DNA of 64,000 bases from Candidatus Sungiibacteriota bacterium (GTDB taxonomy: Bacteria; Patescibacteriota; Minisyncoccia; Sungbacterales; HO2-52-23): assembly GCA_016181585.1 (NCBI GenBank), contig JACOYX010000017.1:8317-72316 (forward strand), read 5' to 3'. Shown here piece by piece: positions 3,095 to 59,924 of the stretch (position 1 is its first letter; the number at the start of each line of letters is the position of its first letter). The notes beneath the pieces are model-generated. The model made no database searches. It saw only the letters and a program-made list of their open reading frames with translations, and was not told the DNA's origin. The position numbers and the translations under genes are program-made.

Positions 3095-4477
3095 ATGACC
3101 AAATCCCGCCACTATATAAAACTACTCATTCTTTTTTGCGGAGACATAGCGCTTCTCTACCTCTCGCTTTTAGCGGGCCTTTTCGTCCGCTATTATCCAG
3201 AATCTGGCTGGCTTCTGGTAGATCAGCACATCATCCCCTTCAGTATTATTTTCGCTGTGTGGATAATTCTTTTCAACGCATTCGGGCTTTATGATCTGAA
3301 ATTCATGAAAAATGAAAAGATGTTTCTTTATCGGATTTTGCGGCTTATGCTCGCCAATACTATTCTTGCCATTATTCTTTTTTATTTTTTCCCCTTCACC
3401 ATAGAACCCCGCCGCAATCTTTTGATTATAGCCGTACTTACCACAGTACTCATTGCTCTATGGCGTTATCTTTTCAATTTTTTCCTCCTCAAAACACCGG
3501 CTTCGCGCATACTGTTTTTCGGTTTGAATACCGACATGAACGAACTCGCCGAATACATCCTCCAAAATCGCCAACTCGGGTTTAAACCCATCGGATTTAT
3601 TGCCGAAAACGCTTCCATTCCCATACTCTCTCCGGAATTTCTGTCCCTTCCCCTCCACACACTCGCTGAAAAAAAATTGAAAGCCATCGTACAGGAAACA
3701 CATGCGGATTCGATTATCATTTCCCGCGAAATAAAAGAAAACAAAACACTTACTAAAATTCTTTTCCAGGTTATTCCTTTGGGCGTTGGGGTTGTGGAAT
3801 TTGCCAAATTCCACGAAATGGTAACGGGGAAAATACCCCATTCTCTCATCGGGGAAATCTGGTTTTTGGAAAATCTTATCGGCATTAAAAAAGGACTTTA
3901 CGACTCCCTCAAACGCACCTGTGATATAGTCCTATCACTGGTATTCCTTTTTCCATCATTCTTTCTTTTTCCGCTCGCCGCGCTAGCGATAAAATGCGAA
4001 TCGCGGGGACCTGTGTTTTTCCGCCAAAAACGCGTCGGAAAAAACGGACAGGAATTTTGGCTGGTAAAATTCCGCTCCATGGTTGAAGATGCGGAAAAAA
4101 TGAGCGGTTTCAAAGGAGGAGGCCGTGACCCGCGACACACCCGCGTCGGCGCATTTTTGCGCAAAAGCTATCTTGATGAATTGCCGCAAATTTTCAATAT
4201 TATTCGCGGCGAGATGTCTTTCGTTGGTCCCCGCCCCGAACGCCCGGAATATGTGGCGGAGCTCAAGCAAAAAATCCCGTTTTACGAAATGAGACTTTTG
4301 GTATTACCCGGCATTACCGGCTGGGCGCAGATCAATATGGAAGACGATGCGTCCGTCGAAGACGCTCCGGAAAAAATGCAGTACGATCTTTATTACATTA
4401 AAAATCGGACATTTATTCTTGATCTTCTCATTATTATCCGCACTATTTTTGCCATTTTGGGAAGACAGGGACGTTGA
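3095..4477 (+). CDS. Polyprenyl-phosphate sugar phosphotransferase (bacterial sugar transferase, WbaP/CpsE/PglC-like initiating enzyme)
   Basis: N-terminal TM helices plus C-terminal PF02397-type catalytic domain (SLVFLFP...ESRGPVFFRQKRVGKNGQEFWLVKFRSM...DELPQIFNIIRGEMSFVGPRPE). Confidence 0.85.
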   Translation: MTKSRHYIKLLILFCGDIALLYLSLLAGLFVRYYPESGWLLVDQHIIPFSIIFAVWIILFNAFGLYDLKFMKNEKMFLYRILRLMLANTILAIILFYFFPFTIEPRRNLLIIAVLTTVLIALWRYLFNFFLLKTPASRILFFGLNTDMNELAEYILQNRQLGFKPIGFIAENASIPILSPEFLSLPLHTLAEKKLKAIVQETHADSIIISREIKENKTLTKILFQVIPLGVGVVEFAKFHEMVTGKIPHSLIGEIWFLENLIGIKKGLYDSLKRTCDIVLSLVFLFPSFFLFPLAALAIKCESRGPVFFRQKRVGKNGQEFWLVKFRSMVEDAEKMSGFKGGGRDPRHTRVGAFLRKSYLDELPQIFNIIRGEMSFVGPRPERPEYVAELKQKIPFYEMRLLVLPGITGWAQINMEDDASVEDAPEKMQYDLYYIKNRTFILDLLIIIRTIFAILGRQGR

Positions 4478-5241: not shown

Positions 5242-5399
5242 GGGAAACCCGCGGATTTTTCGCGGGGTTACGAAGTTGTGCAAGCATGGTTCCCGATATT
5301 CATTATTTTCTCTATAAATAAAAATCGGGATTGCACAACTTCGACCTTTTGTTTGCTCACTGGAGCAAACAAAAAAAGCGAAAAATCTGTGGGTTTCCC
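5242..5399. repeat. Structured repeat family F, copy 1: nested inverted repeats around core catggttcccgatattcatt...aaatcgggattg
   Basis: Outer IR gggaaaccc.c.gatttttcg; second IR gaagttgtgcaa/ttgcacaacttc; inner stem tcccgat/atcggga; side hairpin tttgctcactggagcaaa. Homologous copies at 45823-45957 and 7526-7589 with compensatory changes. Confidence 0.7.
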
Positions 5400-5416: not shown

Positions 5417-6331
5417 TCAAACTATCCTCATCATCTTTTTCAACTCCCCAATCCCGTCTTCAAATTTCACATTTGGCGCCCACCCGATAAGATTTTTTGC
5501 GCGAGAGTTGTCCGCAAGCGTAGCTTTCACCTCTCCTCGTCTCACTTCGGCAAATTTCCATTCACCGCCTATTAATTGCGCCACATCAAGAACACTGTAA
5601 TTTTTCCCCGTACCTACATTAATAATTTCTCCTTTTCCGACACGCGGCGATCCCATCGCGAGAATATTGGCACGCGCGATATCGGTAACGTGCGTAAAGT
5701 CCCGGCGCTGGGTGCCATCGGGAACCACAGTCATAATATCTCCCTTTTTTCGCTGTTCCAAAAATATGCCAATCACAGTCGCATATGGCCCATCAGATGC
5801 TGTAGTCTGCCGTGGTCCGTATACATTAAAATAGCGCAAACACACCGTTTCAAGTCCATAAAATTGTGATGCCATCTCGCAATATTGTTCTCCCACTCGC
5901 TTCTGGATCGCATAGGGAATAACCGGTTCCGGCCTCATATCTTCCTTGAGTGGCATAGGATTATTGGGTCCATACGCCGACGAAGAAGCGGAATAGACAA
6001 CCCGCTTCACCCCGGTGTCACGCGCGGCAAGAAGCACATTTAGCGTGCCGGTGATATTGATATCATTCGTCAACTGCGGCTCCAGTATGGAGTATTGCAT
6101 CCGCGGCTGTGCGGCAGTATGGAAAATCCCCGCGGCCCCCTGAAAAATCGGCTTTAATTTTTCAAAATCGCGTATATCCGCTTCGTGCAATACCGCTTTG
6201 GAATTCACCCGTTCGCGCTTTCCTGTTAAGAAAATATCAACAATATGCGCCTCATCGCCGCGCTCCAAAAGTTGATCCACAATATGCGATCCGATAAATC
6301 CCGCGCCTCCGGTTACAATATATTTCGCCAT
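5417..6331 (-). CDS. NAD-dependent epimerase/dehydratase (SDR; UDP-sugar 4-epimerase-like, WbpP/GalE-type)
   Basis: TGGAGFIGSH Rossmann motif; YxxxK region (SSSAYGP); 304 aa. Confidence 0.8.
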   Translation of the reverse strand: MAKYIVTGGAGFIGSHIVDQLLERGDEAHIVDIFLTGKRERVNSKAVLHEADIRDFEKLKPIFQGAAGIFHTAAQPRMQYSILEPQLTNDINITGTLNVLLAARDTGVKRVVYSASSSAYGPNNPMPLKEDMRPEPVIPYAIQKRVGEQYCEMASQFYGLETVCLRYFNVYGPRQTTASDGPYATVIGIFLEQRKKGDIMTVVPDGTQRRDFTHVTDIARANILAMGSPRVGKGEIINVGTGKNYSVLDVAQLIGGEWKFAEVRRGEVKATLADNSRAKNLIGWAPNVKFEDGIGELKKMMRIV

Positions 6332-6342
6332 TTTAATAATTA

Positions 6343-6488
6343 GACCTACTGCGTAAAGATTTTCGTAACGAAATTTCTTAATTTAGAGACAAAATCGTTG
6401 AATAAATTTCGAGGCCTATCGGCTTAGATAAGTCAAGTTTGGCCGAAATTAAGAAATTGCAGTAGAAGTATCTTTACGCAGTAGGTCT
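6343..6488. repeat. Palindromic repeat family A, copy 1 (terminal IR agacctactgcgtaaag...ctttacgcagtaggtct)
   Basis: 17-bp terminal inverted repeats enclosing about 110 bp of imperfectly palindromic sequence; near-identical to the copy at 51264-51426. Confidence 0.75.
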
Positions 6489-6489
6489 A

Positions 6490-7413
6490 TTATTTATTAT
6501 TTTTCTTTTTTTGAGACTCAACTTTCCTCTTAACCCATTCGTGGTCGTGTACACTCACATCCTCAAGCGTCAGCCCTTGGCTCAAAAGCAACGCCTCATT
6601 GAACGCGCGATCCTGTTTCAAAAGATTTGCCGCATCGCTCATGCAATTTATCTCAAGCGAAGCGATCAATCCGTCAAGATCTTTGGGTAAGCAAAACCCG
6701 CCGAAACCTTTGTACCCTCCATGCGCCACATCGAGATGCGAATCGCCAATGCGAAAATCCGCCGCCAGGCCGCACCGCACGTTTTCGTAATCCCCCCCGA
6801 GGCTTGCCGCAAGCATCGCCAAAGAATTTGCAAAATTTATTTTCCGCGCAAAGTGAATATTACCCCCGTATTTTATAATCTCCGCTTCCGTTGCGGTTAT
6901 TTTCAACGAGCGATAGGTGTTGAGGCCTCCTGGCGACATAAAAGGCGCGCGCGGAAGCAGAGAGAGAGCGAGATAAGCCGCATCAATGCTTTGATTGGTA
7001 AACCCAACGATCTGGCGATCGGGACGGATAAAATCCTCCCATGCACGCCGCTCCGTTAAAAATTCAGGATTGAAGAGAAACTTGTGATGCGGATATTCCT
7101 CCTGAAATTTTTCAGTAGTTCCCGGCGGAACAGTGGATTTTATCACGATAATTTTCTCTCCCTTAATTTTTGAGATCGCGTTCTTTACAAAATTAATATT
7201 AGCCGAACCGTCTTCCGAACGAGGTGTCGGCACTGAAATAAAAACAATATCAGCATTGCTCACACGGTCGTTAAAGCCTTTTTTAGGGTCAATGTCATAC
7301 AAAAAAAGATCCTTGCCGCGCTTGTACTCCTGATACTCTTCAAAATACCGCGCAAGCGGACCTCCCACCATGCCAATCCCCACAATGCCGATTTTAATCT
7401 TTTTATTTTTCAT
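6490..7413 (-). CDS. UDP-glucose/GDP-mannose dehydrogenase family protein, short form lacking the C-terminal UDP-binding domain
   Basis: GIVGIGMVGG NAD-binding motif; catalytic GFGGFCLPKD; only 307 aa; stop lies 2 nt from the family-A repeat. Confidence 0.6.
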   Translation of the reverse strand: MKNKKIKIGIVGIGMVGGPLARYFEEYQEYKRGKDLFLYDIDPKKGFNDRVSNADIVFISVPTPRSEDGSANINFVKNAISKIKGEKIIVIKSTVPPGTTEKFQEEYPHHKFLFNPEFLTERRAWEDFIRPDRQIVGFTNQSIDAAYLALSLLPRAPFMSPGGLNTYRSLKITATEAEIIKYGGNIHFARKINFANSLAMLAASLGGDYENVRCGLAADFRIGDSHLDVAHGGYKGFGGFCLPKDLDGLIASLEINCMSDAANLLKQDRAFNEALLLSQGLTLEDVSVHDHEWVKRKVESQKKKNNK

Positions 7414-11144: not shown

Positions 11145-12260
11145 ATGAAAAAACTCCTTATCGTCGCCGACTCCCCTGGTTCCGCAGAATTCATTGCGCC
11201 CGTCATTCCCTTGCTTCAGAAAAAAACAAAGATCGTGGTCGTGACAGTCAACACTTCTACCGAAGCGCCGTATACGATATTAAAAAAATATAAGCCATTA
11301 CGATGCGATCATGAAAAAGATGCGGAGGCATTGTTTCGAAAAATAAAACCCGATATTCTGCTCGCGGGGACAAGCTCGCTCATCCCCGGCCCATTTGTCA
11401 ATAACTGCTTCATCCGCCTCATGCACCGAGAGCAAAAACCGGTTTTAGTCTTTCAAGACTATTGGGCAAACCACCGCTGGCCGCAAAACAAAGAAACTCT
11501 GCATTTGTGGAACGCCGTATTTGTGCCTGACGAACTTGCAAAAAAGTTTTTGCAGGAAGATGCTTTTTCGGGAAATATCATAACCACCGGCAATCCTGCG
11601 TTTGATAAATTCACAACTGCCAATCCCGCCGCGATTCGCAATGCATTGCGCAAGGAGCTCAACATACGCGGATATGAGTTTGTCATACTCTACGCCGGCA
11701 CCGGCACGCCGCAAGCATGGCAGGAAGATGAAGCAACATTTCGTTTTCTCGCTAATGCATTGCAGGAATTTTTTGCGAACACGCCGAATATCGTTTTTAT
11801 TCCCCGCTCTCACCCGCGCGATGAAGAAAAAAATCGGTATCAAAAACTGGCACCTCGTTTGCGGATGTATAACCCAGATCACGGAAAAAACATCTATTCT
11901 ACCGACAATCTACTCTTAATGGCAGATTGTATAATCAGCATGTATTCAACCGCGCTTCTGCACGCCTGTTTTCTCAAAATACCGGCCATAAGCATTCTTC
12001 TTCCCGATGCGGGCCGCGCGCGCCTTCGAAAAATCAATCTCGATAATTTTCCTCCCAATACCGTTGGCGCGACTATTGGTGTTTACAAAGAATCTACCAA
12101 GGACCTTGTCGCCGCATTCGACGCCGTTAAAAATGACCCGCACTATCGCCAAAAGATAACCAACGCGCAAACGCAATTTTTCTCTTTGGCACAGAACAAA
12201 AAATCAGCCACGGAAACTGCGGCCGATGCGATCACTTCTTTTATTAGACCTGCTGCGTAA
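11145..12260 (+). CDS. Hypothetical GT-B-fold-like protein, paralogue of 9983-10975
   Basis: 371 aa; similar architecture (..LLMADCIISMYSTALLHACFLKIPAI..); stop codon lies within the family-A repeat. Confidence 0.4.
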   Translation: MKKLLIVADSPGSAEFIAPVIPLLQKKTKIVVVTVNTSTEAPYTILKKYKPLRCDHEKDAEALFRKIKPDILLAGTSSLIPGPFVNNCFIRLMHREQKPVLVFQDYWANHRWPQNKETLHLWNAVFVPDELAKKFLQEDAFSGNIITTGNPAFDKFTTANPAAIRNALRKELNIRGYEFVILYAGTGTPQAWQEDEATFRFLANALQEFFANTPNIVFIPRSHPRDEEKNRYQKLAPRLRMYNPDHGKNIYSTDNLLLMADCIISMYSTALLHACFLKIPAISILLPDAGRARLRKINLDNFPPNTVGATIGVYKESTKDLVAAFDAVKNDPHYRQKITNAQTQFFSLAQNKKSATETAADAITSFIRPAA

Positions 12261-12360
12261 AAATTTTTCTACTGCAATTTCAATTCGCACCAAAATCGCT
12301 TCAGCAATTTTATCTCAAAATTCTGAAATTTCGCTATGAAAATCTTTACGCAGTAGGTCT
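12246..12360. repeat. Palindromic repeat family A, copy 2
   Basis: agacctgctgcgtaaaaa ... ctttacgcagtaggtct; supplies stop codons for both flanking genes. Confidence 0.7.
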
Positions 12361-12745
12361 ATTTCTTAATTCCTGTTTTTTTCTCAAGTTCAGCAATTCG
12401 TGATTCAAGTTTAGTATATTCGTCGTAGGTAATAAGACGCTTTTTACCCCGAGGATCGGTCCACTCGTTAATTTTTCTATGGATAAAGCGAAGTTCTTCA
12501 GAGTGATCTTCAAGAATTTCTTCTATAGTACCAATTCTTTGCTCTACCGCACCCATGCGAACTTTAAGATCCTCAATATCAGACTCCAGTTTCGAGAAAT
12601 GCTTGTCCACTCGATCAAACCGCGCATCTATTGCCTCAAACCGCGCATCAACCGCGTCAAAGCCAGCTTTTACCATCACAGCCAATTCATCGATTGTAAC
12701 GCCCTTCTTTTTGGCCATAGTGCCATTATAATCAATCCATCCCAT
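12359..12745 (-). CDS. Hypothetical coiled-coil protein
   Basis: About 128 aa; repeated ARFxAIDARFDRVD heptad-like segments; the ORF-track start is TTG, so I used the first ATG. Confidence 0.45.
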   Translation of the reverse strand: MGWIDYNGTMAKKKGVTIDELAVMVKAGFDAVDARFEAIDARFDRVDKHFSKLESDIEDLKVRMGAVEQRIGTIEEILEDHSEELRFIHRKINEWTDPRGKKRLITYDEYTKLESRIAELEKKTGIKK

Positions 12746-12750
12746 ACTCG

Positions 12751-13860
12751 TCAAATCAGCAAACCTTCAACGATAGGGTCGTACTTTTTAAATGGCTTTG
12801 AGAGTTTTTTTCCTATCACATATTCATATCGCTCCGAAGGCATCCCTCCAGCAAATTTCTGAGGGCGCATGGCATAGATCATATCCGCCGTCAAAATAAC
12901 GCCGGCCGCAATATCTTGTCCTGCCATAAGCGATTTTCGAAAATAAGGACGAAATATCGCCTCTCCATCTTGAAGAACCTTCCCTTCTTTTCCCATGCCT
13001 TTCTGGACAATTTCTTTAGCGAGATATTCTTCTTTTTTTGCGGGATTATTTTCAATATCGCGAATACCTTTGGTAAGAGTCTTGAATTCCTCCGGCGTCA
13101 TGGATACTTTGTGGTCTGCGCCCCATAAATCCCGTGCAAACGAAAAGTGCTTTTCAATCACTCGCGCTCCCAGCGCCACTGCGGCAAGCGCGGAATCAAT
13201 ACCGATCGAATGATCAGAAAATCCGGTTGGCACATGATAACGATCGGCTAAATACTTAATTGATTTTAAATAAAGCTCATCCGGCGGACAGGGGTATTTT
13301 GATACGCAATGCAATAATATTATTTCCGAGTTTCTTCGTTTCAGAAAGTCAATTGCGCTATCAATCTCTTCTTCCGTCGACATACCGGAGGAAATAATAA
13401 TAGGTTTTTTGGTGGAAGCCAGATAATCAAGCATTACAAAATCCAAGAGATCACCGGAACCAACTTTCCATAATTCAACACCAAGTTGCGAAAGTTTTTG
13501 CGCCGCGCCGCGTGACATTGGTGTAGAAAAAAACGTAATGCCAATTTCATCGCAGTACGTTTTTAATGGCCGCCAAAATTCTTCAGGTGGCGTCGCCGCA
13601 GTATTTCGAGAAACCCAAGAATAGCGGTCGGAACCCCTGAAGTGAGGCGAGACAACGTTGATATTCAACTGCTCGTCCTCCACATTGTGCGTCTGAAATT
13701 TCACCGCATCCGCTCCAGCATCTTTTGCAGCTCTAACTAATTTTTTCGCATTTTCCAGATATTCAAAAACCGGACACTCTTCTTCGGTTTGTATAAAATT
13801 CTTGCCCATTTCGGCAATGATGAAAACTTTATTGTTTAGTTGTTGAGGAAAAGAAAGCAT
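12751..13860 (-). CDS. NeuB-family nonulosonic acid synthase (N-acetylneuraminate/legionaminate/pseudaminate synthase-like) with C-terminal SAF domain
   Basis: 369 aa; NeuB TIM-barrel motifs (FIIAEMGKNF, ..KFQTH.., GFSDHS.G); C-terminal SAF-like region. Confidence 0.8.
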   Translation of the reverse strand: MLSFPQQLNNKVFIIAEMGKNFIQTEEECPVFEYLENAKKLVRAAKDAGADAVKFQTHNVEDEQLNINVVSPHFRGSDRYSWVSRNTAATPPEEFWRPLKTYCDEIGITFFSTPMSRGAAQKLSQLGVELWKVGSGDLLDFVMLDYLASTKKPIIISSGMSTEEEIDSAIDFLKRRNSEIILLHCVSKYPCPPDELYLKSIKYLADRYHVPTGFSDHSIGIDSALAAVALGARVIEKHFSFARDLWGADHKVSMTPEEFKTLTKGIRDIENNPAKKEEYLAKEIVQKGMGKEGKVLQDGEAIFRPYFRKSLMAGQDIAAGVILTADMIYAMRPQKFAGGMPSERYEYVIGKKLSKPFKKYDPIVEGLLI

Positions 13861-22676: not shown

Positions 22677-22984
22677 ACCGCTCTTTTTTTCATTTCCTCA
22701 TTGCCCGTGACACCTCTGCTTTTCCAATAACCAACCGCAGGGATTTTCCTTATTTTAAGCCACCTTTTCAGCTACTTGACTTCTCAACAAAGAAATGATA
22801 GCGTGTAAATGTCTGATGGGACAGAGGTTGGAATTGTCTACAGACAGTTTGCCTTAAAGCGCCGACCTCTCGGGACTACCCATCCAGCCCAATTGGGACG
22901 AATGCCGCGATAGACGCGGGGTAGAGAGGAAACGCGACCATCCCATCAGGCATGCTCAGCTCTTTGGAGTTGAGCTTTTCTTTG

Positions 22985-23033
22985 TCCTCACTTTCCATGA
23001 CACCTCTGCTTTTTCAATAACCAACCGCAGGCC
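22985..23033. repeat. Repeat family G (cctcactttccatgacacctctgcttttcaataaccaaccgcagg); four copies at 22692-22750, 22985-23033, 23563-23620 and 23990-24050
   Basis: Copies 2 and 4 share an identical 23-mer. On the minus strand it reads gaggtgtcATGgaaagtgagga.aaa and forms the RBS/start of the NUDIX gene; copy 3 encodes the NUDIX C-terminus. Confidence 0.6.
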
Positions 23034-23206
23034 TGCCAGCCGAAGCCTCGGCGTAGGCGGGGATTTTCCCGCGGCCTTCCGTAGCTTTTAGCGTAGGAGG
23101 CTTTATTTCCCGCCAGAGGCGTGTCCGCCTTCGGCGGATAAGCTGTTTTTCCATCTTTGGCACGATTGAATTTGCTGAATGATAGAAAATGTCATGCGAA
23201 ATTTTC

Positions 23207-23235
23207 TTGACATAGCATACATTTATTTCTATACT
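23207..23235 (+). promoter_or_regulatory. Sigma70-type promoter TTGACA-N17-TATACT for the 23272 gene
   Basis: TTGACA 23207-23212; 17-nt spacer; TATACT 23230-23235; AGGAGG RBS at 23258. Confidence 0.6.
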
Positions 23236-23271
23236 TTTTTCAGAACCTGATAACACAGGAGGTACCCTCGC

Positions 23272-23511
23272 ATGAAGTATCTGCTTACTTTTCTCGCTAT
23301 TTTTGCTGCCTTTACGCTTTTGATTTTCGGTGCTATCCATCTTGATCTATTGCTAAATCCTTGGCTTCGTAACGCCGTGCAGGAGTGGAGGTGGTATAAC
23401 TATTTCACCTCGCATCATGCCGTTACTGCTCTTTACCTGGGAGGATGGCTCTGGTTAATTCCTTCGTTCATCATCTCGGCAATAGCATCTTTAGTTATCA
23501 CACAAGATTAG
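23272..23511 (+). CDS. Small two-TM membrane protein (79 aa)
   Basis: Strong promoter and SD; hydrophobic helices; terminator follows at 23521-23556. Confidence 0.55.
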   Translation: MKYLLTFLAIFAAFTLLIFGAIHLDLLLNPWLRNAVQEWRWYNYFTSHHAVTALYLGGWLWLIPSFIISAIASLVITQD

Positions 23512-23520
23512 CCAGTCATC

Positions 23521-23556
23521 TGCGCCCGGTTCACTGGAATCGGGCCTTTTTCTTTA
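23521..23556 (+). terminator. Rho-independent terminator gcccgg-ttcactggaat-cgggc + T-run
   Basis: Stem-loop followed by ctttttcttt. Confidence 0.5.
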
Positions 23557-23583
23557 TATTATCTCCCATGACACTTTTGCTCT

Positions 23584-23982
23584 TTATTGACTAGCCCGCA
23601 GGGATTTACTCACAAAATCTTTTAAATACGGCGTTGTCTCTAACTCCATAAATTCGTCTTTTGTAACCCATCGGAATTCGGTGTGCTCGTTGTTTAACTT
23701 TACATCACCGTTTACCGCCTTGCATCTGTAGCCGATAAATAGCACATAATTATCTTCATCCTTGTTGTAAGCGGTTTCCACAACCAGCGGAATAATATTG
23801 TCTATATCTATTCCAGCTTCTTCTTTTACTTCTCGTCTTAGTGCGGTTTCGTGTTCTTCTGGTATTTCAACTGCTCCGCCCGGTAAATCCCATCGCAATC
23901 CTTTATATGATGCTTTCAACACAAGAAACTTACCCTCTCTATTTGACACAATTGCTTTCTGGTGAAAATTGATTTTAGCCAT
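23584..23982 (-). CDS. NUDIX hydrolase
   Basis: Nudix box GGAVEIPEEHETALRREVKEEAGI; start moved to the second ATG (MAKINF...), which has GGAAAGTGAGGA upstream. Confidence 0.75.
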   Translation of the reverse strand: MAKINFHQKAIVSNREGKFLVLKASYKGLRWDLPGGAVEIPEEHETALRREVKEEAGIDIDNIIPLVVETAYNKDEDNYVLFIGYRCKAVNGDVKLNNEHTEFRWVTKDEFMELETTPYLKDFVSKSLRASQ

Positions 23983-24012
23983 ATTTTTTATCCTCACTTT
24001 CCATGACACCTC

Positions 24013-24687
24013 TTATATTTCTTTCCACTTCCTCACTTCCTCATTTGCCTTTTTATATCTCTCCTCGGTTCCCGCATCGATCCAATATCCTTTATGCAAA
24101 AAAACATTCAGTTCGCCGCTCTCGGCAAGCCGCGGAAAAATCTCTTTTTCGATCATAAATTCTTCCGGTGTGTTTTCAAACACAGTCGGCGACAAAAGAT
24201 AAAATCCGCAATTCACATACCCCGTAATTTTTTCCTGCGGTTTTTCGAGAAACTCTTTTATCTTGCCATTATCAATGTTTAAAAGCCCAAAATCCCGCGC
24301 ATCGCTCACCTCCACACACATGATAGTATTGGGCAAAGAGCGCATCATCGCGGAAATATCCACATCAGTTAAACCATCTCCATTGAGCACCAAAAATGGT
24401 TCTTTCAAATCACGACTCGCGAATTTAATTCCCCCGCCCGTACCCAAAGGCCTCGGTTCCACCACATACTCAAATTTTCCCGGCCACTTCGCCTCACAAA
24501 ATGCGATAACCTGATCTGCCTTATGATACAAACTCAAGCGAATGTCGAAGATGCCATGCTTTTGCAATAAATTTACTTGATGCTCCAAAATCGTAACTCC
24601 ACCGACTTCAGCAAGCGGCTTTGGCCTCTCTCCCGTAATTTTTGCAAGCCGGGTGCCGAAACCACCGGCTAAAATAATTGCTTTCAT
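24013..24687 (-). CDS. Sugar-phosphate nucleotidyltransferase (NTP_transferase family)
   Basis: MKAIILAGGFGTRL signature; 224 aa; the start codon lies inside the left 22-bp TIR of the MITE-like element. Confidence 0.75.
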   Translation of the reverse strand: MKAIILAGGFGTRLAKITGERPKPLAEVGGVTILEHQVNLLQKHGIFDIRLSLYHKADQVIAFCEAKWPGKFEYVVEPRPLGTGGGIKFASRDLKEPFLVLNGDGLTDVDISAMMRSLPNTIMCVEVSDARDFGLLNIDNGKIKEFLEKPQEKITGYVNCGFYLLSPTVFENTPEEFMIEKEIFPRLAESGELNVFLHKGYWIDAGTEERYKKANEEVRKWKEI

Positions 24688-25142
24688 CCCACACATAACT
24701 TACACAAGACTATATTGAAGACACTCTTTAAGTCTCCGTAAACCCTGCGCATTTAATTGGTCTGTTGCCGAATAGCACTTTGACTACAATTGCATAAATT
24801 CGGTCAAATTTTTCAAAAAATTTCTTGGCTTATCTTCCAGATAGGCCGCAAAATTTTTTGAAAAATTTGCCTCGAATTTCTGCAACTTCGCGACGTAGGC
24901 TATTCGGCAACAGACCCTTAATTTTAAAGATTGTTCTCTCTTATAAGCATCATCTTTTTACACATAAGCTTCATAGTACACAAGTCGCCATGGCAAATAC
25001 TTTTTTGTGTACGACGACTTGCCACTGTTATGCTGATATAGTCTTCTACGAAGATCACCTGTACCCTACGTACAAACCATCAACAGTTTCAGATTTGAGC
25101 AAATACACATAATACATGTTTGTGTAAGTTATGTGTGGGATG
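24685..25142. mobile_element. MITE-like element: 458 bp bounded by 22-bp perfect terminal inverted repeats (catcccacacataacttacaca / tgtgtaagttatgtgtgggatg); non-coding interior built from mosaic repeat modules
   Basis: TIRs at 24685-24706 and 25121-25142. Interior carries module D (ggtctgttgccgaatagc ... gctattcggcaacagacc) and module C (cttggcttatcttccagataggccgcaaaa), both shared with 40596-40775, 42021-42477 and 57660-57893. The TIRs supply the start codon of 24013-24687 and the last 5 codons plus stop of 25129-25857. Confidence 0.6.
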
Positions 25143-34971: not shown

Positions 34972-35050
34972 ATTATAGAACCTCCCTTCTCAAGGACCTA
35001 CTGCAGAGCTTAAATTAAAATAGTTACCTTGTCAAGGTAACTATGAAAAC

Positions 35051-40595: not shown

Positions 40596-40775
40596 TTCTA
40601 GCAATATAAAAATGAAAAATGACGGTTAAAATTTAAAATTTCGCATTTTACATTGTCATTTTTCATTTTTATATTAGACCCACTGATTAAAGATAAATCT
40701 ACTGCAATTTCATAATTTCGGCCAAAATCGTCTCAAAATTTATTGGCTTACCTTACAGGTAGGCCGCAAATTTTT
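40596..40775. repeat. Mosaic intergenic repeat: 21-bp perfect IR (aatataaaaatgaaaaatgac / gtcatttttcatttttatatt) + family-A-like arm (agacccactgattaaagat) + module C
   Basis: Module B (gtcatttttcattttt) recurs at 54370-54390 and 55545-55565; module C (ttggcttaccttacaggtaggccgcaaatttttgaa) recurs at 24860-24890, 42225-42255 and 57795-57835 (reverse). Confidence 0.65.
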
Positions 40776-40778
40776 GAA

Positions 40779-42020
40779 CTACTTTGGTATGACCCTTTCC
40801 CCTCCCACTGGCATGATAAATTTGCCGCCTTTGGCGATAAAATCCTTTTCCTTTTGTAAAATGATATCCTTGTACGGCCACGCGAGCAAAAAATAATAAT
40901 CAGGAGGATTTTGCCGCGCCCATGAGATATCTACAATAGGAATATGCGTGCCCGGAGTAAATTTGCCGATTTTTGAAGGAAGCGTTTCAGTCGCAAAATC
41001 AAGCACCGACCTGCCGATACCAAAATAATTCAGGAGAGTATTTCCGCGCGCCGGAGCGCCATAGGCCGCAATGCGTTTCCCTTCCCGCTTCAGCCGAAGC
41101 AGTGTCCCTTTTATGTCCTCCCGCAGAGCCTCAACGCTTTTTGCCAATTTTTGATACGAAGAAAAGTTATCAAAACCGCGCATCCTCTCAAGCGCGGAAT
41201 ACCGCCCGACACTTTCTTCGATAGCATACGTGCCCGGACGCGCCGCATAGTAGCGAAGCGAATTCCCTTGCACAGGGAAAGGCTTTACGTCAAAAAGTTC
41301 AAGTCCATACTGCGTCAAAAGCTTATTTAGCGGTTTCACCGCCAAGTAAGACATATGCTCATGATAAACAGAATCAAACGCCAACTGGTCAAACATATCC
41401 CCGAGATAGGGCGCCTCGAACACAAAAACACCTTGTGGAGAAAGAAGCGACACAACACCTTTCATAAGATCATGATGATCATCTATATGTGCCACGACAT
41501 TATTGCCGATAATTACATCGGCCTGTCCGAATTCGTCTGCAATTTTCTGTGCCGTCGCTTCACCGAAAAATTCCGCACGCGTCATAACTCCGCGCTCGTT
41601 TGCCATCGCCGCAACATTTTCCGCAGGATCAACCCCCAGTACCTGCACGCCGTATTGTTTGATTAAATAAAGCAAATGCCCGTCGTTTGATCCGATTTCT
41701 ATAACAAATTTTCCCGTATCAGGCAAAAACCGCGCCCGCATTTCCTCCGCATAGCCCGTGAAATGCAAAGAGCTGGGAATACCGGAAGAAAGATATACAT
41801 AGTCATGCACAAAGAGAAGCCGCGGATCAACCACATGGCTTAATTGCACCAGATTGCAGTTTTCACAAAACACGAGACCTAAAGGAAAACGTTTTTCCGA
41901 CGCAAACGATGCAGTATCGCGAAGCAGTGAATTTGCCAGTGGCTGATCCCCCAAATCAAAAAAATGTCTGAGACTTTCCGACTCGCACATTCTACATTTT
42001 ATTTGTTGATAAACATCCAC
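40779..42020 (-). CDS. SAM-dependent sugar C-methyltransferase (TcaB9/TylC3-like) with N-terminal Zn-ribbon
   Basis: CRMCES...CENC zinc ribbon; methyltransferase domain (VIEIGSNDGHLL); C-methyltransferase C-terminal domain; 413 aa. Confidence 0.7.
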   Translation of the reverse strand: MDVYQQIKCRMCESESLRHFFDLGDQPLANSLLRDTASFASEKRFPLGLVFCENCNLVQLSHVVDPRLLFVHDYVYLSSGIPSSLHFTGYAEEMRARFLPDTGKFVIEIGSNDGHLLYLIKQYGVQVLGVDPAENVAAMANERGVMTRAEFFGEATAQKIADEFGQADVIIGNNVVAHIDDHHDLMKGVVSLLSPQGVFVFEAPYLGDMFDQLAFDSVYHEHMSYLAVKPLNKLLTQYGLELFDVKPFPVQGNSLRYYAARPGTYAIEESVGRYSALERMRGFDNFSSYQKLAKSVEALREDIKGTLLRLKREGKRIAAYGAPARGNTLLNYFGIGRSVLDFATETLPSKIGKFTPGTHIPIVDISWARQNPPDYYFLLAWPYKDIILQKEKDFIAKGGKFIMPVGGERVIPK

Positions 42021-42477
42021 GTTGATAATTTAAAAGATATCTTTACGTATAGGTCTATTTAATGGGTTTGTTGCCGAATATCGCTTATGAGCTACGATTG
42101 CATAAATTCGGGTAAATCGCATCGCGATTTACGGGAAATTTAGCGAAGCCGGGTATTCCCGTGCGAAGCGTAAAATTTCCCCGGCTTTTGCTCAAGGAAG
42201 CAAAAGAATTTTTCAAAAAAATTCTTGGCTTATCTCAGCATATAGGCCTTAAACGGTCGATCAGTCCCAGACCGTTCGTACCGAACGGCATGGACCAAGT
42301 CAGGTTTTAGACCGCGTAGTTTGTGTGAGTATTTGCCTCGTCCAGACATGTCGGGATCGCTTCAAAGGCTATTCGGCAACAGTCCCTTAAAGCAGATTGA
42401 GCCTTTTTATACTAAAAAGAATTCAAAATAAAGGCAAATAGAAAAACCCTTCTGAAAGGGTTTTTCTCCAGAAACAG
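42021..42477. repeat. 457-bp non-coding spacer built from repeat modules A-like, D, C and E
   Basis: tctttacgtataggtct; gttgccgaata...ctattcggcaacag; cttggcttatctcagcatataggcc; ggccttaaacggtcgatcagtcccagaccgttcgtaccgaacgg...caggttttagacc (reverse complement of 57700-57790). Confidence 0.6.
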
Positions 42478-44895: not shown

Positions 44896-45795
44896 TCACA
44901 ATATCTCTGGCTTCTCTTCTTTTTTAGTGTCCCTTTCGGCAACAAATTTTTTTACTTGTTCGTACCACATCGGCTTCGGCCACAAAAGATTGCCATTTTC
45001 ATCATAGACCGGAAGTAAAACTTTTTCTTCCTGCATAATTTCAATTATTTCTTTTTCAAACTCTACTGAATTTCCGTGCAAACCAAGACTTTTGACACCA
45101 CCAAAGTCTCTTGCTACCACAATCCCTTTGAAAAATCGCGGCGACACACGCGAAAAGATTTCAAAACCGTGTTCAGTATCAGCCTTCGGAAAACCATTTT
45201 CATCTATAATATTATGCTGTTTTAGTCTCTCAAATTCTGGATGTTCCAATATACGCGGATCACCGGGTCGTAACCCTTTAAAATACTTTTTCCAGATTTC
45301 TTGCATACCCTCTCCTGCATTCCAAAATGATTTTACGTTTTTGTTCTCTTTATTGCGCTCATCCGGAGAAATTTCTTTAAATGACGATGGATCAAAAATA
45401 ATTCCTATGGAACCGGATAACCACCAATATGATTTCTTTATCTCAATTGGGTTTTGATCAGAAGTCCTTTTAAAGGAGTTTGCTCTGCCGACAATGTTAA
45501 AACACAACCACAAACCACCTTCTCTTTTCCGCGTAGCTTCCGCCCATGGCTCCTTCCATGGACCTGAATGCAGACCCGTACCAAGAATACCTTCATGGAG
45601 CACTTTTGGAAGTTTTCCTAATGAATTTCCTCTCTCACCATACGCACCTAAAACATGATACGCCGTTCCTTTTTTATTAATATCCTGTACTTTTTCCATA
45701 ATCTTCTCGATCACTTCCGGAGAAAGTTCTTTCTCCCTTTCTTTTCCTTCATCAGCCCTCTCCACAGATTTATTTTCAAATTTTGATTTTTCCAT
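44896..45795 (-). CDS. Hypothetical protein
   Basis: About 300 aa; Lys/Glu-rich; no recognised motif; start moved to MEKSKF to exclude the part overlapping repeat F2. Confidence 0.4.
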   Translation of the reverse strand: MEKSKFENKSVERADEGKEREKELSPEVIEKIMEKVQDINKKGTAYHVLGAYGERGNSLGKLPKVLHEGILGTGLHSGPWKEPWAEATRKREGGLWLCFNIVGRANSFKRTSDQNPIEIKKSYWWLSGSIGIIFDPSSFKEISPDERNKENKNVKSFWNAGEGMQEIWKKYFKGLRPGDPRILEHPEFERLKQHNIIDENGFPKADTEHGFEIFSRVSPRFFKGIVVARDFGGVKSLGLHGNSVEFEKEIIEIMQEEKVLLPVYDENGNLLWPKPMWYEQVKKFVAERDTKKEEKPEIL

Positions 45796-45822
45796 GGCAA
45801 TAGCACGAGAAAGGTCACTATT

Positions 45823-45957
45823 GATTTTTCGCGGGGTTTTGAAGTTTCGCAAGCATGGTTCCCGATATTCATTATTTTATTTTTATAAATGAAAATCGGG
45901 ATTGCGAAACTTCACCCTTCAATTTGCTCGCTGGAGCAAATTGAAAAAGCGAAAATT
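45823..45957. repeat. Structured repeat family F, copy 2
   Basis: gaagtttcgcaa-gcatggttcccgatattcatt...aaatcgggat-tgcgaaacttc; side hairpin atttgctcgctggagcaaat; compensatory changes relative to copy 1. Confidence 0.7.
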
Positions 45958-45991
45958 AATAGTGACATTTCTCCAATTTTAATAATAAAAG

Positions 45992-47377
45992 CTAGTTGAA
46001 TAACTCTCTCTTCACATACTCCGCAATCCTTTTTCCGCACATACCATCATAAAACTGTATCTGTTCTTTTCTCATGCGTTCCCGCCCTTCTCGATCAAGC
46101 GCGGGATTTTTTAAATAGGCATCAACGGCATAAATAAGCTCATAATTATTATACACCAATCGCACCCCTTTTGTATCTTCCAGCTCGCGATAGTGATCGT
46201 GCCTGTCCGGCACATATTTCACGCTATGAATCGGTGGAGTATTCTGATCCGCATCGTAACGAATACCAATCATCGGTTTATCAAACGCCACTGCATCAAT
46301 CGTCAACGTGGAAAACGTATTAATCATGATTTCAGAAAAATACAGAGAATTTATCATGAGCTGTAAATCAACCTCGTCAAATTCCCAGTCTTTGCGCGAC
46401 ATGGCAATTTGCGTTTGAATTGGAAAAAAATATTGGCACGGCTGTGAAAAAGAAACATGATCGCTTTTACGAATTTGCTCCACGGGAATTTCTGGCGTAG
46501 CAGGGCGATAGCGAACTAAAATATGTAAATCATTTGGCAATTTTCCGGTATCAATCGCCTCAAGCAACGCATTGAGCATAATGACCGCCGAACCTGTAAA
46601 CCGATCATAAAACGGCGCAAAAAGAATAATGCGCCGATGGGGATCGATGCCTATGGTTTTGCAAAAATCCTCACGCGAAACCGGACGCGGCCGGAAAAAT
46701 TCATCGTATCCCGGCGGTCCCGTGATAATAATGTCGTCCTCCGAAATGCCGGTGTATTTTACAGCCTGTTTTTTCATCCTTTCTGTGTATAGAATCAACT
46801 TATCCGGCAAAAGCTGTATTGCCCCTTTCGATGTTAAGTTGTCCCACGAGCGTACCATGCCGATGATCGAAATACCCAAACGCTTGCATGCCCGCAAAAA
46901 CACGCGGTCTATTCCAAACGCCACATCTGGCGCGAGCAATAAATCAGGTTTATATTTATCGACAAGCTTCAAAACTCCTTCGTCCACCGGCACAAAACGA
47001 TCAAGCCAACGCACCATTTTGCGGGGAAAGAGAAAAGGGCCAAAAACAAAATTCACTGCGCGCTGTAAAAAGAATTTTGTAAAATTGCCGTATTTTAAAT
47101 ACCGCTCGCGCTGGCGAAACCAAATAGTCCGCGTGCGAAGCAAGTTGAAAGCAAAGCTTGAGAGCGCTTCTCCAAACCAATTTTCTCCGATACCATCCAA
47201 CACTTCAAACACCACGTTCGGCGCCTGAAACCGCTTCTGATAAAACTCCAGTTTCGACGATGGAATCACCACCACGAGCCTTATTCGCGGATCGCTCACC
47301 AGCTCCCGATAAATATCCGTCGGAAAAAAATTCTTAGACACAAACCCGTTATAAATGGGAATAAGGATGGTTTTCAT
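45992..47377 (-). CDS. TagF-like putative transferase, paralogue 2 of 3
   Basis: 461 aa; MVRSWDNLTSKG...FYDGMCGKRIA. Confidence 0.45.
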   Translation of the reverse strand: MKTILIPIYNGFVSKNFFPTDIYRELVSDPRIRLVVVIPSSKLEFYQKRFQAPNVVFEVLDGIGENWFGEALSSFAFNLLRTRTIWFRQRERYLKYGNFTKFFLQRAVNFVFGPFLFPRKMVRWLDRFVPVDEGVLKLVDKYKPDLLLAPDVAFGIDRVFLRACKRLGISIIGMVRSWDNLTSKGAIQLLPDKLILYTERMKKQAVKYTGISEDDIIITGPPGYDEFFRPRPVSREDFCKTIGIDPHRRIILFAPFYDRFTGSAVIMLNALLEAIDTGKLPNDLHILVRYRPATPEIPVEQIRKSDHVSFSQPCQYFFPIQTQIAMSRKDWEFDEVDLQLMINSLYFSEIMINTFSTLTIDAVAFDKPMIGIRYDADQNTPPIHSVKYVPDRHDHYRELEDTKGVRLVYNNYELIYAVDAYLKNPALDREGRERMRKEQIQFYDGMCGKRIAEYVKRELFN

Positions 47378-47446
47378 AATTTTTTAACATCTTCTACATC
47401 CACATGGTGTGTTTGTTTGCAGTTGTATTCATCACTCCTTTCAAAA

Positions 47447-49237
47447 TCACTTCCCCTCGACATACCATTCCCCAACCACCACTCCATCAACCCACCCGCT
47501 TACCAAGTGCTCCAGCGCATCGCGCGGCGAACCCACAATCGGAAGGCCGTGGCGATTAAATGATGTATTGAGCAAAAGCCCAATGCCGGTTTTCGCTTTA
47601 AACTCTTTTAATATATCATAAAACCACGGATTCCATTCTTTGGATACCGTCTGCGGCCGCATCGTGCCATCCACATGCACAACTGCCGGAACTTCCTTTT
47701 TTGCAAAATCATTTGCGGGAACTGCAAATGTCATATAACGATATTCGCCGCCGCCCTCCCAAAAACGATGCGCCTCTTCTTCCATGAGTGAAGGCGCAAA
47801 CGGAACAAAAGGCTCTCTGCCTTTTAAAATTTTATTGATCCGGTCCTTCACGGCGTTATTTCGCGGATCGGCCAACACCGAGCGATTACCAAGAGCGCGA
47901 GGCCCCATTTCAAGCCGCCCATGAAACGTGCCGATTACTTTTCCTTGAATCAATTTCTCCGTAATGAGCATAGGTGTCGCATCTTGCACTGAAAACTCTC
48001 CAGTAGAAACAACGGCATCAATATCTTTTTTTATTTCATCATCCGAAAATTCGTGCCCCAAATATGGATTGCCAAATTTCACCCGCCCTTTCAATGCGTC
48101 CATTTGATAGAGCGCTTCCATAGCGGCGCCAGCGGCAAGACCGGAATCTCCCGAATCTGGAAACACGAAAAAATTATCCGGCTTTAATTCATCGCGAATG
48201 CGCGCATTGCCTTTTACATTCAGCATTACACCGCCCGCCGCCGCGATATTTTTAGAGGCAGTAAGGCGCGTCGCGTCACGGACATAGTCCGCCATATTTT
48301 TCTCGCAATGTTCTTGCGCATAATAGCTGAAGTCTTCCCGCGTCATCGTATCCAAATATTTTTTAAATTCATCAGCTTGGGCAATAGATATTAAAGGATT
48401 GGGAAGCGCTTTTTCCGGATACACTTTGTTGAAATCACGCAGATTCCAATGAATGTTCGAGCGCATGACTCCGTCTTCCACCCGCACGATATCGCGAAAA
48501 GGATTTTCTCCGTGAGGATCGGCAAAAGCCGCCAACCCCATAGTTTTGTATTCTCCGTCCACAGGCACAAATCCCAGCGCTTCGGTAACCGCCTGATAAA
48601 AATGCCCCAAACTATCTTTTGCGGCGGAGCTCCGCAAAAGCTCCATAGTTCCATCGGCAGAACCTTTATATATGGTTCCGCAAAGCCCGTCGCCCACGCC
48701 ATCGAGCGTAACCACACACGCCTCGGAAAACCCCGAAAGCCGAAAAGCCGAAGCCGCATGAGCGCGGTGATGGGCGATATAAAAAAAAGGCACATCGCCC
48801 CGCATAAGACCGATTTCTTTCAAATAATCTTGAAAACGAAGCCAGTGCCTTTCAGGGAAAGGATTTTCCGTTTTCTTTTTGTGGTCATTACTTTCGCCGT
48901 ATACAATACGCTTTGCCCACGCGCGCGTCGCGCTCGGCGATACAGCCGGTTCAACGCTTTCCTTCCCCGCGGCATCAATTGAAAAAGTTTTTTTATGTTC
49001 CGGATACAGCACGCGCCGCGTGGTAAACGCCACTGCAGAAATTTCCGCCGGGGAAACCCCCGCGGTTTTCAAAACCGTTTCCAACGCTTGACGCGGAAAT
49101 CCGCAATGATGTTTTATCCGCGAAATTCTTTCCTCCGCAACCGCCGCCACAACCCCATCCGAAGAACACAAGGCCACTGAAGCATCATGCTTAACGTGAA
49201 TTCCAAGAACCATCGGCGCTTTTTTTGGTAATACCAT
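47447..49237 (-). CDS. Carbamoyltransferase (NodU/CmcH family)
   Basis: 596 aa; N-terminal Kae1/YgjD-like fold (LGIHVKHDASVAL) plus C-terminal carbamoyltransferase domain. Confidence 0.8.
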   Translation of the reverse strand: MVLPKKAPMVLGIHVKHDASVALCSSDGVVAAVAEERISRIKHHCGFPRQALETVLKTAGVSPAEISAVAFTTRRVLYPEHKKTFSIDAAGKESVEPAVSPSATRAWAKRIVYGESNDHKKKTENPFPERHWLRFQDYLKEIGLMRGDVPFFYIAHHRAHAASAFRLSGFSEACVVTLDGVGDGLCGTIYKGSADGTMELLRSSAAKDSLGHFYQAVTEALGFVPVDGEYKTMGLAAFADPHGENPFRDIVRVEDGVMRSNIHWNLRDFNKVYPEKALPNPLISIAQADEFKKYLDTMTREDFSYYAQEHCEKNMADYVRDATRLTASKNIAAAGGVMLNVKGNARIRDELKPDNFFVFPDSGDSGLAAGAAMEALYQMDALKGRVKFGNPYLGHEFSDDEIKKDIDAVVSTGEFSVQDATPMLITEKLIQGKVIGTFHGRLEMGPRALGNRSVLADPRNNAVKDRINKILKGREPFVPFAPSLMEEEAHRFWEGGGEYRYMTFAVPANDFAKKEVPAVVHVDGTMRPQTVSKEWNPWFYDILKEFKAKTGIGLLLNTSFNRHGLPIVGSPRDALEHLVSGWVDGVVVGEWYVEGK

Positions 49238-49246
49238 AATAGTACT

Positions 49247-49894
49247 TTAACTGTTTACGAGATGGTCTGTATACCCCATGCTTACTAATTTATCATATGC
49301 GTCCCACACATCTGAAGGAATATCTTGTACAATTTGAAAACCTTTTTTGGGATATATTTTTATTCTTTGCAAATCCCCAACCATGATATTAATTATCAAG
49401 TCGATTGGAAGTTTCTCTGTGGGGTACTGTTCAAATGAAATTTGCGGCGAGGTGACAACAAAATTTTTCTCCGGCCATACTTTTTTAAAAGTAGCATACG
49501 CCCGCCGCTCCATATATGGTTTTTGTACCAAAATTATTTTTTGCGGGTCGAGACCGTGCGACACAAGCAATTCTTTAACAAATTGAATATTCTCTCCCGT
49601 ATTTGTAGATTTATTTTCGACTAAAATTTTATCTTCAGGTACACCCATTTCTAAAGCGCGTTTCTTAAACATATCCGCTTCCGCGTCTTTCCACTCTTCC
49701 GGCGTTAGCCAGCCTCTTCCTCCGGAGAAAATAATAAATAGCGCCCAGTTTTTCAAAAAAAGTTCTGCGGCTCGCTCCGCAACCCTAACATCATTGCTCC
49801 CCAACGCCAAAATGCAATCCGCTTGTTCAAGCGGCTGATGCATGTGGTGATAATTCCAGATTTTCTCGGCCAGTTTATAAACTTCGTTGTCCAC
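49247..49894 (-). CDS. DUF218/YdcF-SanA-ElyC-like protein
   Basis: 215 aa; ILALGSNDVRVAERAAELF... DUF218 core. Confidence 0.6.
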   Translation of the reverse strand: MDNEVYKLAEKIWNYHHMHQPLEQADCILALGSNDVRVAERAAELFLKNWALFIIFSGGRGWLTPEEWKDAEADMFKKRALEMGVPEDKILVENKSTNTGENIQFVKELLVSHGLDPQKIILVQKPYMERRAYATFKKVWPEKNFVVTSPQISFEQYPTEKLPIDLIINIMVGDLQRIKIYPKKGFQIVQDIPSDVWDAYDKLVSMGYTDHLVNS

Positions 49895-50116
49895 GATAAC
49901 AGTGTTACAAAGGCGACATTGAAAAAACTATGAGACCATTACTAAACTCTTTTTTCTCAGCGAGATCGCAGTTCGCGCGGGAAACTTGAATAATGAGGAA
50001 AGACTATTAGGATAATAATCTGATGAAGGCGGATGTTTTGGGGCCGACGCTTTGCCGTGCTGTCGAGTGCGAAATTATGCCGGTCATAAGCAGAAAAAGG
50101 AGTTTTGTAATGGTCT

Positions 50117-51263: not shown

Positions 51264-51426
51264 AGACCTACTGCGTAAAGATTTTCGTAACGAAATTTCT
51301 TAATTTAGAGACAAAATCGTTGAATAAATTTCGAGGCCTATCGGGCTTAGATAAGTCAAGAAATTTTGAAGCGATTTTGGCCTAAATTAAGAAATTGCAG
51401 TAGAAGTATCTTTACGCAGTAGGTCT
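51264..51426. repeat. Palindromic repeat family A, copy 3 (first 95 nt identical to copy 1 at 6343)
   Basis: agacctactgcgtaaagattttcgtaacgaaatttcttaatttagagacaaaatcgttgaataaatttcgaggcctatcgg...ctttacgcagtaggtct. Confidence 0.75.
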
Positions 51427-57659: not shown

Positions 57660-57893
57660 AGATCTGCTGATTAAAGATTTTCGTTACGATCCCGACATAT
57701 CGGGACAGAATTTCGAGACAAAATCGCTTAACAAATTTTGCGGTCTAAAACCTGACCTGCTCCGTACCGTTCGGTATGAACGGTCTGGGACGTTTCGGCC
57801 GTTTAAGGCCTATCTGTAAGGTAAGCCAAAAAGTTTTGAAGTGATTTTGGAGCGAATTGAAATTGCAGCAGAATTACCTTTACGCAGTAGGTC
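57660..57893. repeat. Palindromic repeat family A, copy 4 (long mosaic variant carrying modules E and C)
   Basis: agatctgctgattaaag...ctttacgcagtaggtca; internal hairpin tcccgacatatcgggac; modules E and C in reverse orientation relative to 42021-42477. Confidence 0.65.
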
Positions 57894-57909
57894 AATTAAA
57901 TAAAATATA

Positions 57910-59884: not shown

Positions 59885-59924
59885 AGACCTACTGCGCAAA
59901 GAATTATCTTTGCGCAGTAGGTCT
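59885..59924. repeat. Minimal family-A palindrome: 17-bp perfect-stem hairpin agacctactgcgcaaag-aattat-ctttgcgcagtaggtct
   Basis: Fills nearly the whole 54-nt spacer between two minus-strand genes. Confidence 0.7.

Follow-up and report, generated by a model that had tools for sequence, protein, structure and literature searches.

A MITE-like family of palindromic repeats in a glycan-biosynthesis island and in the genomes of many CPR bacteria

[quoted passage not shown] Its mobility is backed by three independent lines of evidence, namely flanking duplications, empty sites and a genomic context free of constraint. MITEs are well known in bacteria and archaea, and nothing about family A is conceptually new. 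The genomes of CPR/Patescibacteria are small and are usually described as poor in mobile DNA. In this window, several nested MITE-like families crowd the intergenic spacers of a glycan-biosynthesis island, and one MITE-like family is common to many candidate phyla with identical ends.

The original prediction of a repeat family with defined ends turned out to be right. With up to three mismatches, the terminal 17-mer AGACCTACTGCGYAAAG matched the window ten times, compared to 0.13 matches expected. The null consisted of 100 dinucleotide-preserving shuffles, none of which reached ten matches (maximum two). Family A occupies seven sites in the window, comprising five two-ended copies that can be read directly, one truncated copy and one solo end (Table 1). 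The five two-ended copies lie where they had been placed, except that the first starts at 6342 instead of 6343 and that the copy at 57660 ends at 57894. Two degenerate copies had been proposed in addition. The one at 40675-40693 is a real site but larger than assumed, since it belongs to a truncated copy of ~100 bp that lacks the second arm and the second end and adjoins the stop codon of a C-methyltransferase gene (40779-42020). The other, at 34990-35010, is a chance match: it agrees at 10/12 terminal bases, no better than chance (1.7 expected), has no partner end and shows similarity to none of the 99 family members described below. The solo end precedes the C-methyltransferase ORF by 20 bp and borders immediately on an element of a second repeat family, family B.

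Table 1. Sites of family A in the 64-kb window and the two types of subterminal arm
Feature	Position	Length	Structure	Flanks (left/right)	Neighboring genes
Full copy	6342-6488	147 bp	perfect 17-nt terminal inverted repeats	ATT/ATT	both minus strand: UGDH-like ORF 6490-7413 (stop side), epimerase gene 5417-6331 (start side)
Full copy	12246-12360	115 bp	opposite polarity, B-type end left	ATT/ATT	
Full copy	51264-51426	163 bp		ATT/ATT	460-aa ORF 51455-52837; SDR dehydratase/epimerase gene 50117-51097
Full copy	57660-57894	235 bp	degenerate ends	ATT/ATT	
Minimal copy	59885-59924	40 bp	two ends and a 4-nt loop	ACA/GCA	
Truncated copy	40675-40775	~100 bp	left end AGACCCACTGATTAAAG, B-type subterminal region, central hairpin		
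Solo end	42041-42056		CTTTACGTATAGGTCT, then ATT; direct reading, too short for statistics		
A-type subterminal arm			...GATTTTCGTAGCGAAAT		
B-type subterminal arm			...GATTnTTCTRCTGCAATTTC		

All window copies are intergenic and often lie only 5-15 bp from a start or stop codon. The copy at 12246-12360 sits between convergent ORFs, while that at 57660-57894, whose left end is degenerate (AGATCTGCTGATTAAAG) and whose right end carries GGTCA, splits the genes for the E1-alpha and E1-beta dehydrogenase subunits. The minimal copy lacks a perfect flanking duplication (ACA/GCA). Since the T of the target together with the terminal AG creates an inward-reading TAG at each element end, and TAA also occurs within the end, the elements can terminate adjacent reading frames. 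Element-supplied stop codons had been predicted and are indeed found: ORF 11145-12260 ends at the TAA within the left end of the copy at 12246-12360, and ORF 12359-12754 at a TAG composed of the last two bases of this element and one flanking base. The predicted vicinity to SDR genes was also seen, in that the copy at 6342 precedes the ATG of an epimerase-family gene by 10 bp and the copy at 51264 lies 166 bp upstream of a GDP-mannose-dehydratase/epimerase-family gene. This association is most likely incidental, because the copies occupy intergenic spacers of every kind, without a bias in orientation.

The two arms of family A have terminal inverted repeats of 17-22 bp in common (AGACCTACTGCGYAAAGATT...), and the end consensus AGACCTACTGCGTAAAGATTTT is at least 80% conserved across 182 ends. 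The next ~25 subterminal nucleotides differ between the arms (A- and B-type), which gives the element a polarity that is kept across lineages. Every copy is a long imperfect palindrome with a folding z of -6.5 to -12 relative to shuffled sequence; the copy at 6342-6488, for example, folds as a long hairpin of -50.8 kcal/mol (z = -8.4). The 99 non-redundant two-ended copies among the matches listed are 34-354 bp long, with a mode of 159-160 bp, while those in the window measure 40-235 bp. Three sources contribute to this variation: internal deletion, which leads to 72-nt and 40-nt forms; alternative central modules, which define subfamilies; and other small palindromic elements that are nested inside family A copies. 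The copy at 59885 retains the last 25 nt of the B-type end. It probably arose by internal deletion from an older insertion, since the corresponding place in a relative (L100) is taken by a longer copy, immediately upstream of a GT2 gene. An extra inner module of ~86 nt (57731-57816) is present in the copy at 57660 and also in the family B copy (42239-42324). Several Sungbacteria copies carry a nested AGACGGGGCG...CGCCTCGCGTCT hairpin. In the L083 copy, a CCCCGTTAG...CTAACGGGG unit is nested between its own TGAAC/TGAAC repeats. The original description as a MITE with variable cargo holds for the mobile MITE-like family but not for the cargo, which is made up of small palindromic modules, either alternative or nested, and not of genes; some of these modules have flanking duplications of their own. 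The three checks proposed at the outset, for copies elsewhere, target-site duplications and empty sites, all came out in favor of a mobile family. An ~80-bp palindromic unit, CCCCGTTAGAAGTCT...AGACTTCTAACGGGG, is nested in the family A copies at L083 6097-6340, L094 4453-4696 and L172 (from 6165); in L083 it lies between TGAAC/TGAAC direct repeats and is a separate mini-element with a 5-bp duplication that was inserted into a MITE.

We compared the 3-mers that flank the 99 copies on either side with those obtained from 5000 shuffled pairings of left and right flanks. Identical 3-mers were found on both sides of 74 copies, compared to 22.7 +/- 3.5 (maximum 35) for the shuffled pairings. A 4-bp match was seen in 0/99 copies and a 2-bp match in only 5/99. 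Where the left flank was not ATT, 40 of 58 copies were still matched, and of the 25 copies (25/99) without a perfect duplication, 19 have flanks that agree at two of the three positions. Among the duplicated triplets, ATT is the most frequent (34 copies), followed by AAT (17), AGT (5), TAT (5), ACT (4) and others; the target is therefore an AT-rich, roughly palindromic A-N-T.

Relatives without the insertion were identified for the sites at 57660 and 40675. In L100 (91% amino acid identity), the spacer between the E1-alpha and E1-beta genes is 6 bp long, and in L101 (89%) it measures 56 bp and aligns with the window spacer minus the element and one copy of the duplication. At the position corresponding to 40675, the C-methyltransferase gene and the next gene overlap in L226 (77%), and L225 (81%) has the right flank of the window without the element (21/22 nt identical, by reading). 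These empty sites fit insertion and precise excision alike, because the flanks of the relatives, with 77-91% protein identity, are similar but not identical. The context of the copies is unconstrained: they occur in co-directional, convergent and divergent spacers and show no orientation bias relative to the genes, with 9 copies of either polarity in the co-directional spacers.

These observations bear on the question of whether the palindromes could instead be host sequences with a regulatory or structural role, such as REP/BIME-like repeats, transcript-stabilizing hairpins or protein-binding sites, which are selected between glycan-biosynthesis genes and do not move. The location of the window copies close to start and stop codons would fit this explanation, as would the very stable hairpins, the ends that are identical across distant hosts, and the fact that no transposase was found. 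The end also contains an outward-facing -35-like hexamer, TTTACG, but this is weak and matches at the consensus level only, and at 6342 the -10 of the promoter-like match overlaps the start codon. A directional regulatory element was rejected on these grounds, together with the lack of an orientation bias and the lack of any terminator-like site in the family A element. A known RNA family was also rejected: Rfam returned nothing at gathering thresholds, and at relaxed thresholds only plant miRNA hairpin models far below threshold, which are generic for long hairpins. Several observations speak against static host palindromes: the 3-bp duplications at their flanks vary in sequence, relatives differ in whether a site is occupied, truncated and solo copies exist, and in other genomes copies adjoin unrelated genes. 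We therefore consider a non-mobile host palindrome very unlikely and a MITE family the preferred reading.

A different question is raised by the region around 40675-40775 and 42041-42056, where a single gene lies between a half copy and a solo end in inverted orientation, with ATT outside of both. Together with the mosaic nature of the glycan-gene island, whose content is unlike that of its relatives, this arrangement could mean that the ends delimit mobile gene cassettes, comparable to integron attC sites or to mobile insertion cassettes (MICs) that lack a transposase. Family A indeed resembles these systems in having conserved ends, variable inner content and a position between genes of the same orientation. 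It differs from them in that the inner content is non-coding, that the flanked gene is resident and syntenic, and that no integrase or recombinase family was found among the 38 window ORFs scanned. The gene in question encodes a sugar C-methyltransferase of 413 aa, and the gene order NeuB - methyltransferase - 590-aa gene - 340-aa gene is kept in L225 and L226, which lack the elements. Because it has the same neighbors in relatives without elements, the C-methyltransferase gene is a resident located beside two decayed insertions and not a passenger; a role as gene cargo was rejected on the basis of this conserved synteny. Both remnants look B-type (by reading) and thus probably derive from two separate insertions, and the matching outer ATT is uninformative, ATT being the commonest target. 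Furthermore, no gene-carrying version was found among the 99 two-ended copies or the wider end pairs (among the matches listed). Gene cassettes bounded by family A ends are therefore extremely unlikely, and we regard the two remnants as decayed MITE copies. The C-terminus of the C-methyltransferase departs from that of its relatives at the point where the truncated copy begins.

The host is a Candidatus Sungbacteria genome, two window proteins being 100% identical to proteins of a MAG of that name (locus tags HYT37_*). The surroundings of these copies were characterized by a Pfam scan of 38 window ORFs; ~25 further ORFs of at least 100 aa lie outside the scan. All ORFs with a Pfam match belong to cell-envelope, sugar/glycan biosynthesis or ordinary metabolism, and include glycosyltransferases, NeuB, epimerases, a Wzy-like protein and a carbamoyltransferase; six of the 38 have no significant match. 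A relative, L103 (78% identity), lacks the window segments 44905-45985, which contains an unannotated 318-aa ORF and a 131-bp repeat, and 47375-50113, which contains the carbamoyltransferase gene and a DUF218 gene. Since these two segments are missing from L103, the glycan island is mosaic between close lineages.

The near-identity of the copies at 6342 and 51264 had been taken as a sign of recent duplication. The near-identity as such is real, as 146/147 aligned positions match, with one 1-nt and one 15-nt indel, although the identical stretch at the start comprises 81 nt and not 95. Recent duplication, however, can apply to one of the two copies at most. Some insertions are old rather than recent, judging from the occupation of sites in relatives: the site at 59885 is already occupied in a relative of 91% identity, and the insertion at 51264 is old because L104 (81% protein identity) carries a diverged copy there. 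Given this age, the near-identity of the copy at 6342 means either that it was recently copied from the element at 51264 or that gene conversion has occurred between both. The contig index has no entry for the epimerase beside 6342, and none of the related loci examined extends over this site. If gene conversion or recombination between resident copies were responsible, and not recent transposition, this would explain how a site with a diverged copy in an 81% relative can have a virtually identical partner in the window, and the UGDH-like ORF beside 6342, which lacks its C-terminal domain, gives a hint of rearrangement. On the other hand, the ATT duplications are intact at both 6342 and 51264, and a recent copy made from the old element at 51264 accounts for the identity equally well, so that we consider gene conversion possible but rather unlikely. 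The identity of 146/147 positions in the window and of 99.4% within one metagenome-assembled genome (MAG) supports recent amplification of the MITE family. The UDP-glucose/GDP-mannose dehydrogenase-like ORF 6490-7413 itself (minus strand) comprises a partial N-terminal domain (profile positions 70-181) and the central domain, and it ends 1 bp from the copy at 6342 without a C-terminal domain; it may be a truncated gene or the scar of a rearrangement.

As anticipated for a mobile repeat, many copies exist elsewhere, in other CPR genomes and in groundwater metagenomes. We scanned 185,579 species-representative genomes (596 Gb) for the 17-mer. Single matches in unrelated phyla were about as numerous as estimated by chance for 596 Gb. 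Inverted 17-mer pairs 70-250 bp apart, in contrast, were restricted among the matches listed to CPR/Patescibacteria-labeled MAGs and one Pacearchaeota-labeled contig. Family A is present in at least 18 MAG records, labeled Sungbacteria/Sungiibacteriota, Staskawiczbacteria, Jorgensenbacteria, Parcubacteria and Saccharibacteria, and in metagenome contigs. One Sungbacteria MAG alone, MHQM01, harbors at least 16 two-ended copies, and the metagenome contigs, several of them named as Hainich groundwater assemblies, add at least 69 further two-ended copies; the family as a whole is larger than this sample. The carrier genomes span 32% to 52% GC with the same ends, and the identity between copies reaches 99.4% within one MAG and 97.5% between differently labeled MAGs. 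The contig labeled Candidatus Pacearchaeota archaeon (L011; DAOSDI010000025) contains, at 6892-7050, a family A copy of 159 bp that is flanked by duplicated ATT and is 95.6% identical to one in a Saccharibacteria-labeled MAG. Either a CPR contig was mis-binned here or the element was transferred into a DPANN archaeon. A viral origin was rejected: the eight IMG/VR matches to the 17-mer are found in seemingly homologous phage sequences, have neither a partner end nor the subterminal motif, and look like chance. A literature search did not find the end sequence in a relevant context, nor any link between MITEs and CPR/Patescibacteria, which are also absent from a 2024 review of prokaryotic MITEs (PMC10969869). 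While the kind of element is ordinary, we thus found no earlier description of family A.

According to the same review, prokaryotic MITEs are shorter than 500 bp, have terminal inverted repeats and flanking direct repeats, target AT-rich intergenic sites and form stable stem-loops (PMC10969869), and all of these structural features are found in family A. Like the Correia/NEMIS elements of Neisseria, RUP of Streptococcus pneumoniae and the QMITEs of Coxiella, family A lacks an ORF, has inverted repeats, forms a hairpin and is present in dispersed intergenic copies. The fixed length of the target duplication, the insertion near gene ends, the supply of stop codons and the internal-deletion variants are MITE-like as well. 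Unlike Correia and RUP, for which the target duplication is a TA dinucleotide, family A duplicates 3 bp (ANT). An assignment to Correia/NEMIS- or IS630/Tc1-type MITEs was therefore rejected, as the duplication is exactly 3 bp and a 2-bp match was seen in only 5/99 copies. Family A is also reminiscent of REP/BIME sequences with RAYT in forming abundant intergenic palindromes without an internal transposase. However, REPs are 20-40 nt long and have no target duplication, whereas the elements of family A measure ~159 bp, end in 17-nt inverted repeats and are flanked by a 3-bp duplication. This relationship was rejected based on the 3-bp duplication and on the lack of a Y1 (IS200-like) family among the 38 window ORFs scanned.

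No enzyme that could mobilize family A was detected. The Pfam scan of 38 window ORFs gave no match to a transposase, integrase, recombinase or Y1/HUH family, and no autonomous partner with family A ends was found in the window or in the related loci examined. None of the 99 non-redundant two-ended copies among the matches listed encloses an ORF, and no multi-copy ORF was found in the CPR loci examined. Wider end pairs, 0.45-5 kb apart, enclose only ordinary genes or represent chance matches among the matches listed, and the pairs in L090, L005, L190/L180 and L128 were rejected as autonomous elements for this reason.

From the duplications we infer that a transposase supplied in trans, of which no gene was found, would recognize the family A ends and make a 3-bp staggered cut at an AT-rich, roughly palindromic A-N-T target, mostly ATT or AAT. 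The element would then insert, and gap repair would duplicate the 3 bp. The copies vary through internal deletion down to the 40-bp hairpin, through alternative central modules and through the nesting of other palindromic elements. As the sequence shows, insertions are placed in very short operon spacers and separate genes that were previously adjacent or overlapping, and the folding predictions suggest that the element would add a very stable hairpin to read-through transcripts.

As for the type of enzyme, IS5 and PIF/Harbinger elements generate 3-bp duplications at AT-rich targets (PMC4122938). Family A resembles the MITEs derived from such elements (Tourist-like) in its 3-bp duplication and its AT-rich, roughly palindromic target. 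It differs in using A-N-T and not T-W-A/T-N-A, the target usually quoted for Harbinger and IS1031-type elements, and its ends start with AG, unlike those of IS5, which typically start with GA/GG. Elements of the ISL2 group may duplicate 'ANT'. The IS30 family, with duplications of 2-3 bp, is an alternative candidate to the IS5 type for the family A enzyme. Our best guess, made with low confidence by analogy from the 3-bp AT-rich duplication alone, would be a DDE transposase of the IS5/PIF-Harbinger type.

Because the ends are identical in hosts of 32%-52% GC and no autonomous copy is found among the 99, we also considered that family A might depend not on a classical resident insertion sequence but on another source of the enzyme, such as a transposase carried by a CPR-specific phage or plasmid or a single-copy transposase gene without ends of its own. 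We regard this as improbable. If true, one transposase would serve many CPR lineages and possibly DPANN archaea, and the elements would be portable homology that shuffles surface-glycan gene modules between episymbionts. Finding the cognate enzyme of the MITE family would provide a native transposon system for organisms that are largely without genetic tools, and the family A ends define the substrate of this putative transposase, which would be active now or would have been so recently in CPR bacteria.

The MITE family also has practical consequences. It alters gene ends and operon spacing, which is relevant to the annotation of MAGs, and offers a convenient marker by which to trace horizontal exchange among CPR lineages that occur together. 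Furthermore, it breaks short-read assemblies of CPR genomes. Short-read (Logan) contigs were seen to start or end inside family A copies (L100 1-27, L104 3897-3926).

Several other repeats were noticed in the vicinity. A second palindromic family, B, is present at 24759-24916 and 42065-42385 of the window and at ~2445-2480 of L103, with the ends (G)GGTCTGTTGCCGAATAG and CTATTCGGCAACAGACC(C). Inner modules are common to families A and B (24777-24895, and 42239-42324, which is the reverse complement of 57731-57816). The flanks of the family B copies, TTAAT/TTAAT and TTAAT/TTAAA, suggest a duplication of 4-5 bp, which would imply a transposase different from that of family A. A third intergenic repeat of ~131 bp with internal hairpins occurs at 5254-5384 and 45823-45955 (81-89% identical), one copy being located just downstream of the epimerase gene that adjoins the family A copy at 6342. 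Two inverted-repeat pairs bound short intergenic segments: 24683-24716/25111-25144 (34 nt, 88% complementarity), which encloses a family B copy, and 19709-19736/19886-19913 (28 nt, 93% complementarity). Both have the appearance of further MITE-like elements and may be nested. A 56-nt repeat is present in four copies (61-84% identical) that start at 22686, 22976, 23547 and 23982 (within 22686-24037) and appear to be the 5' ends of small tandem paralogous ORFs on the minus strand. Finally, the spacer between the NeuB and methyltransferase genes of L225 contains a perfect 31-nt palindrome at 4005-4035, AAATCTTACGAGACC-A-GGTCTCGTAAGATTT, which partly resembles a family A end (CGTAAGAT vs CGTAAAGAT).
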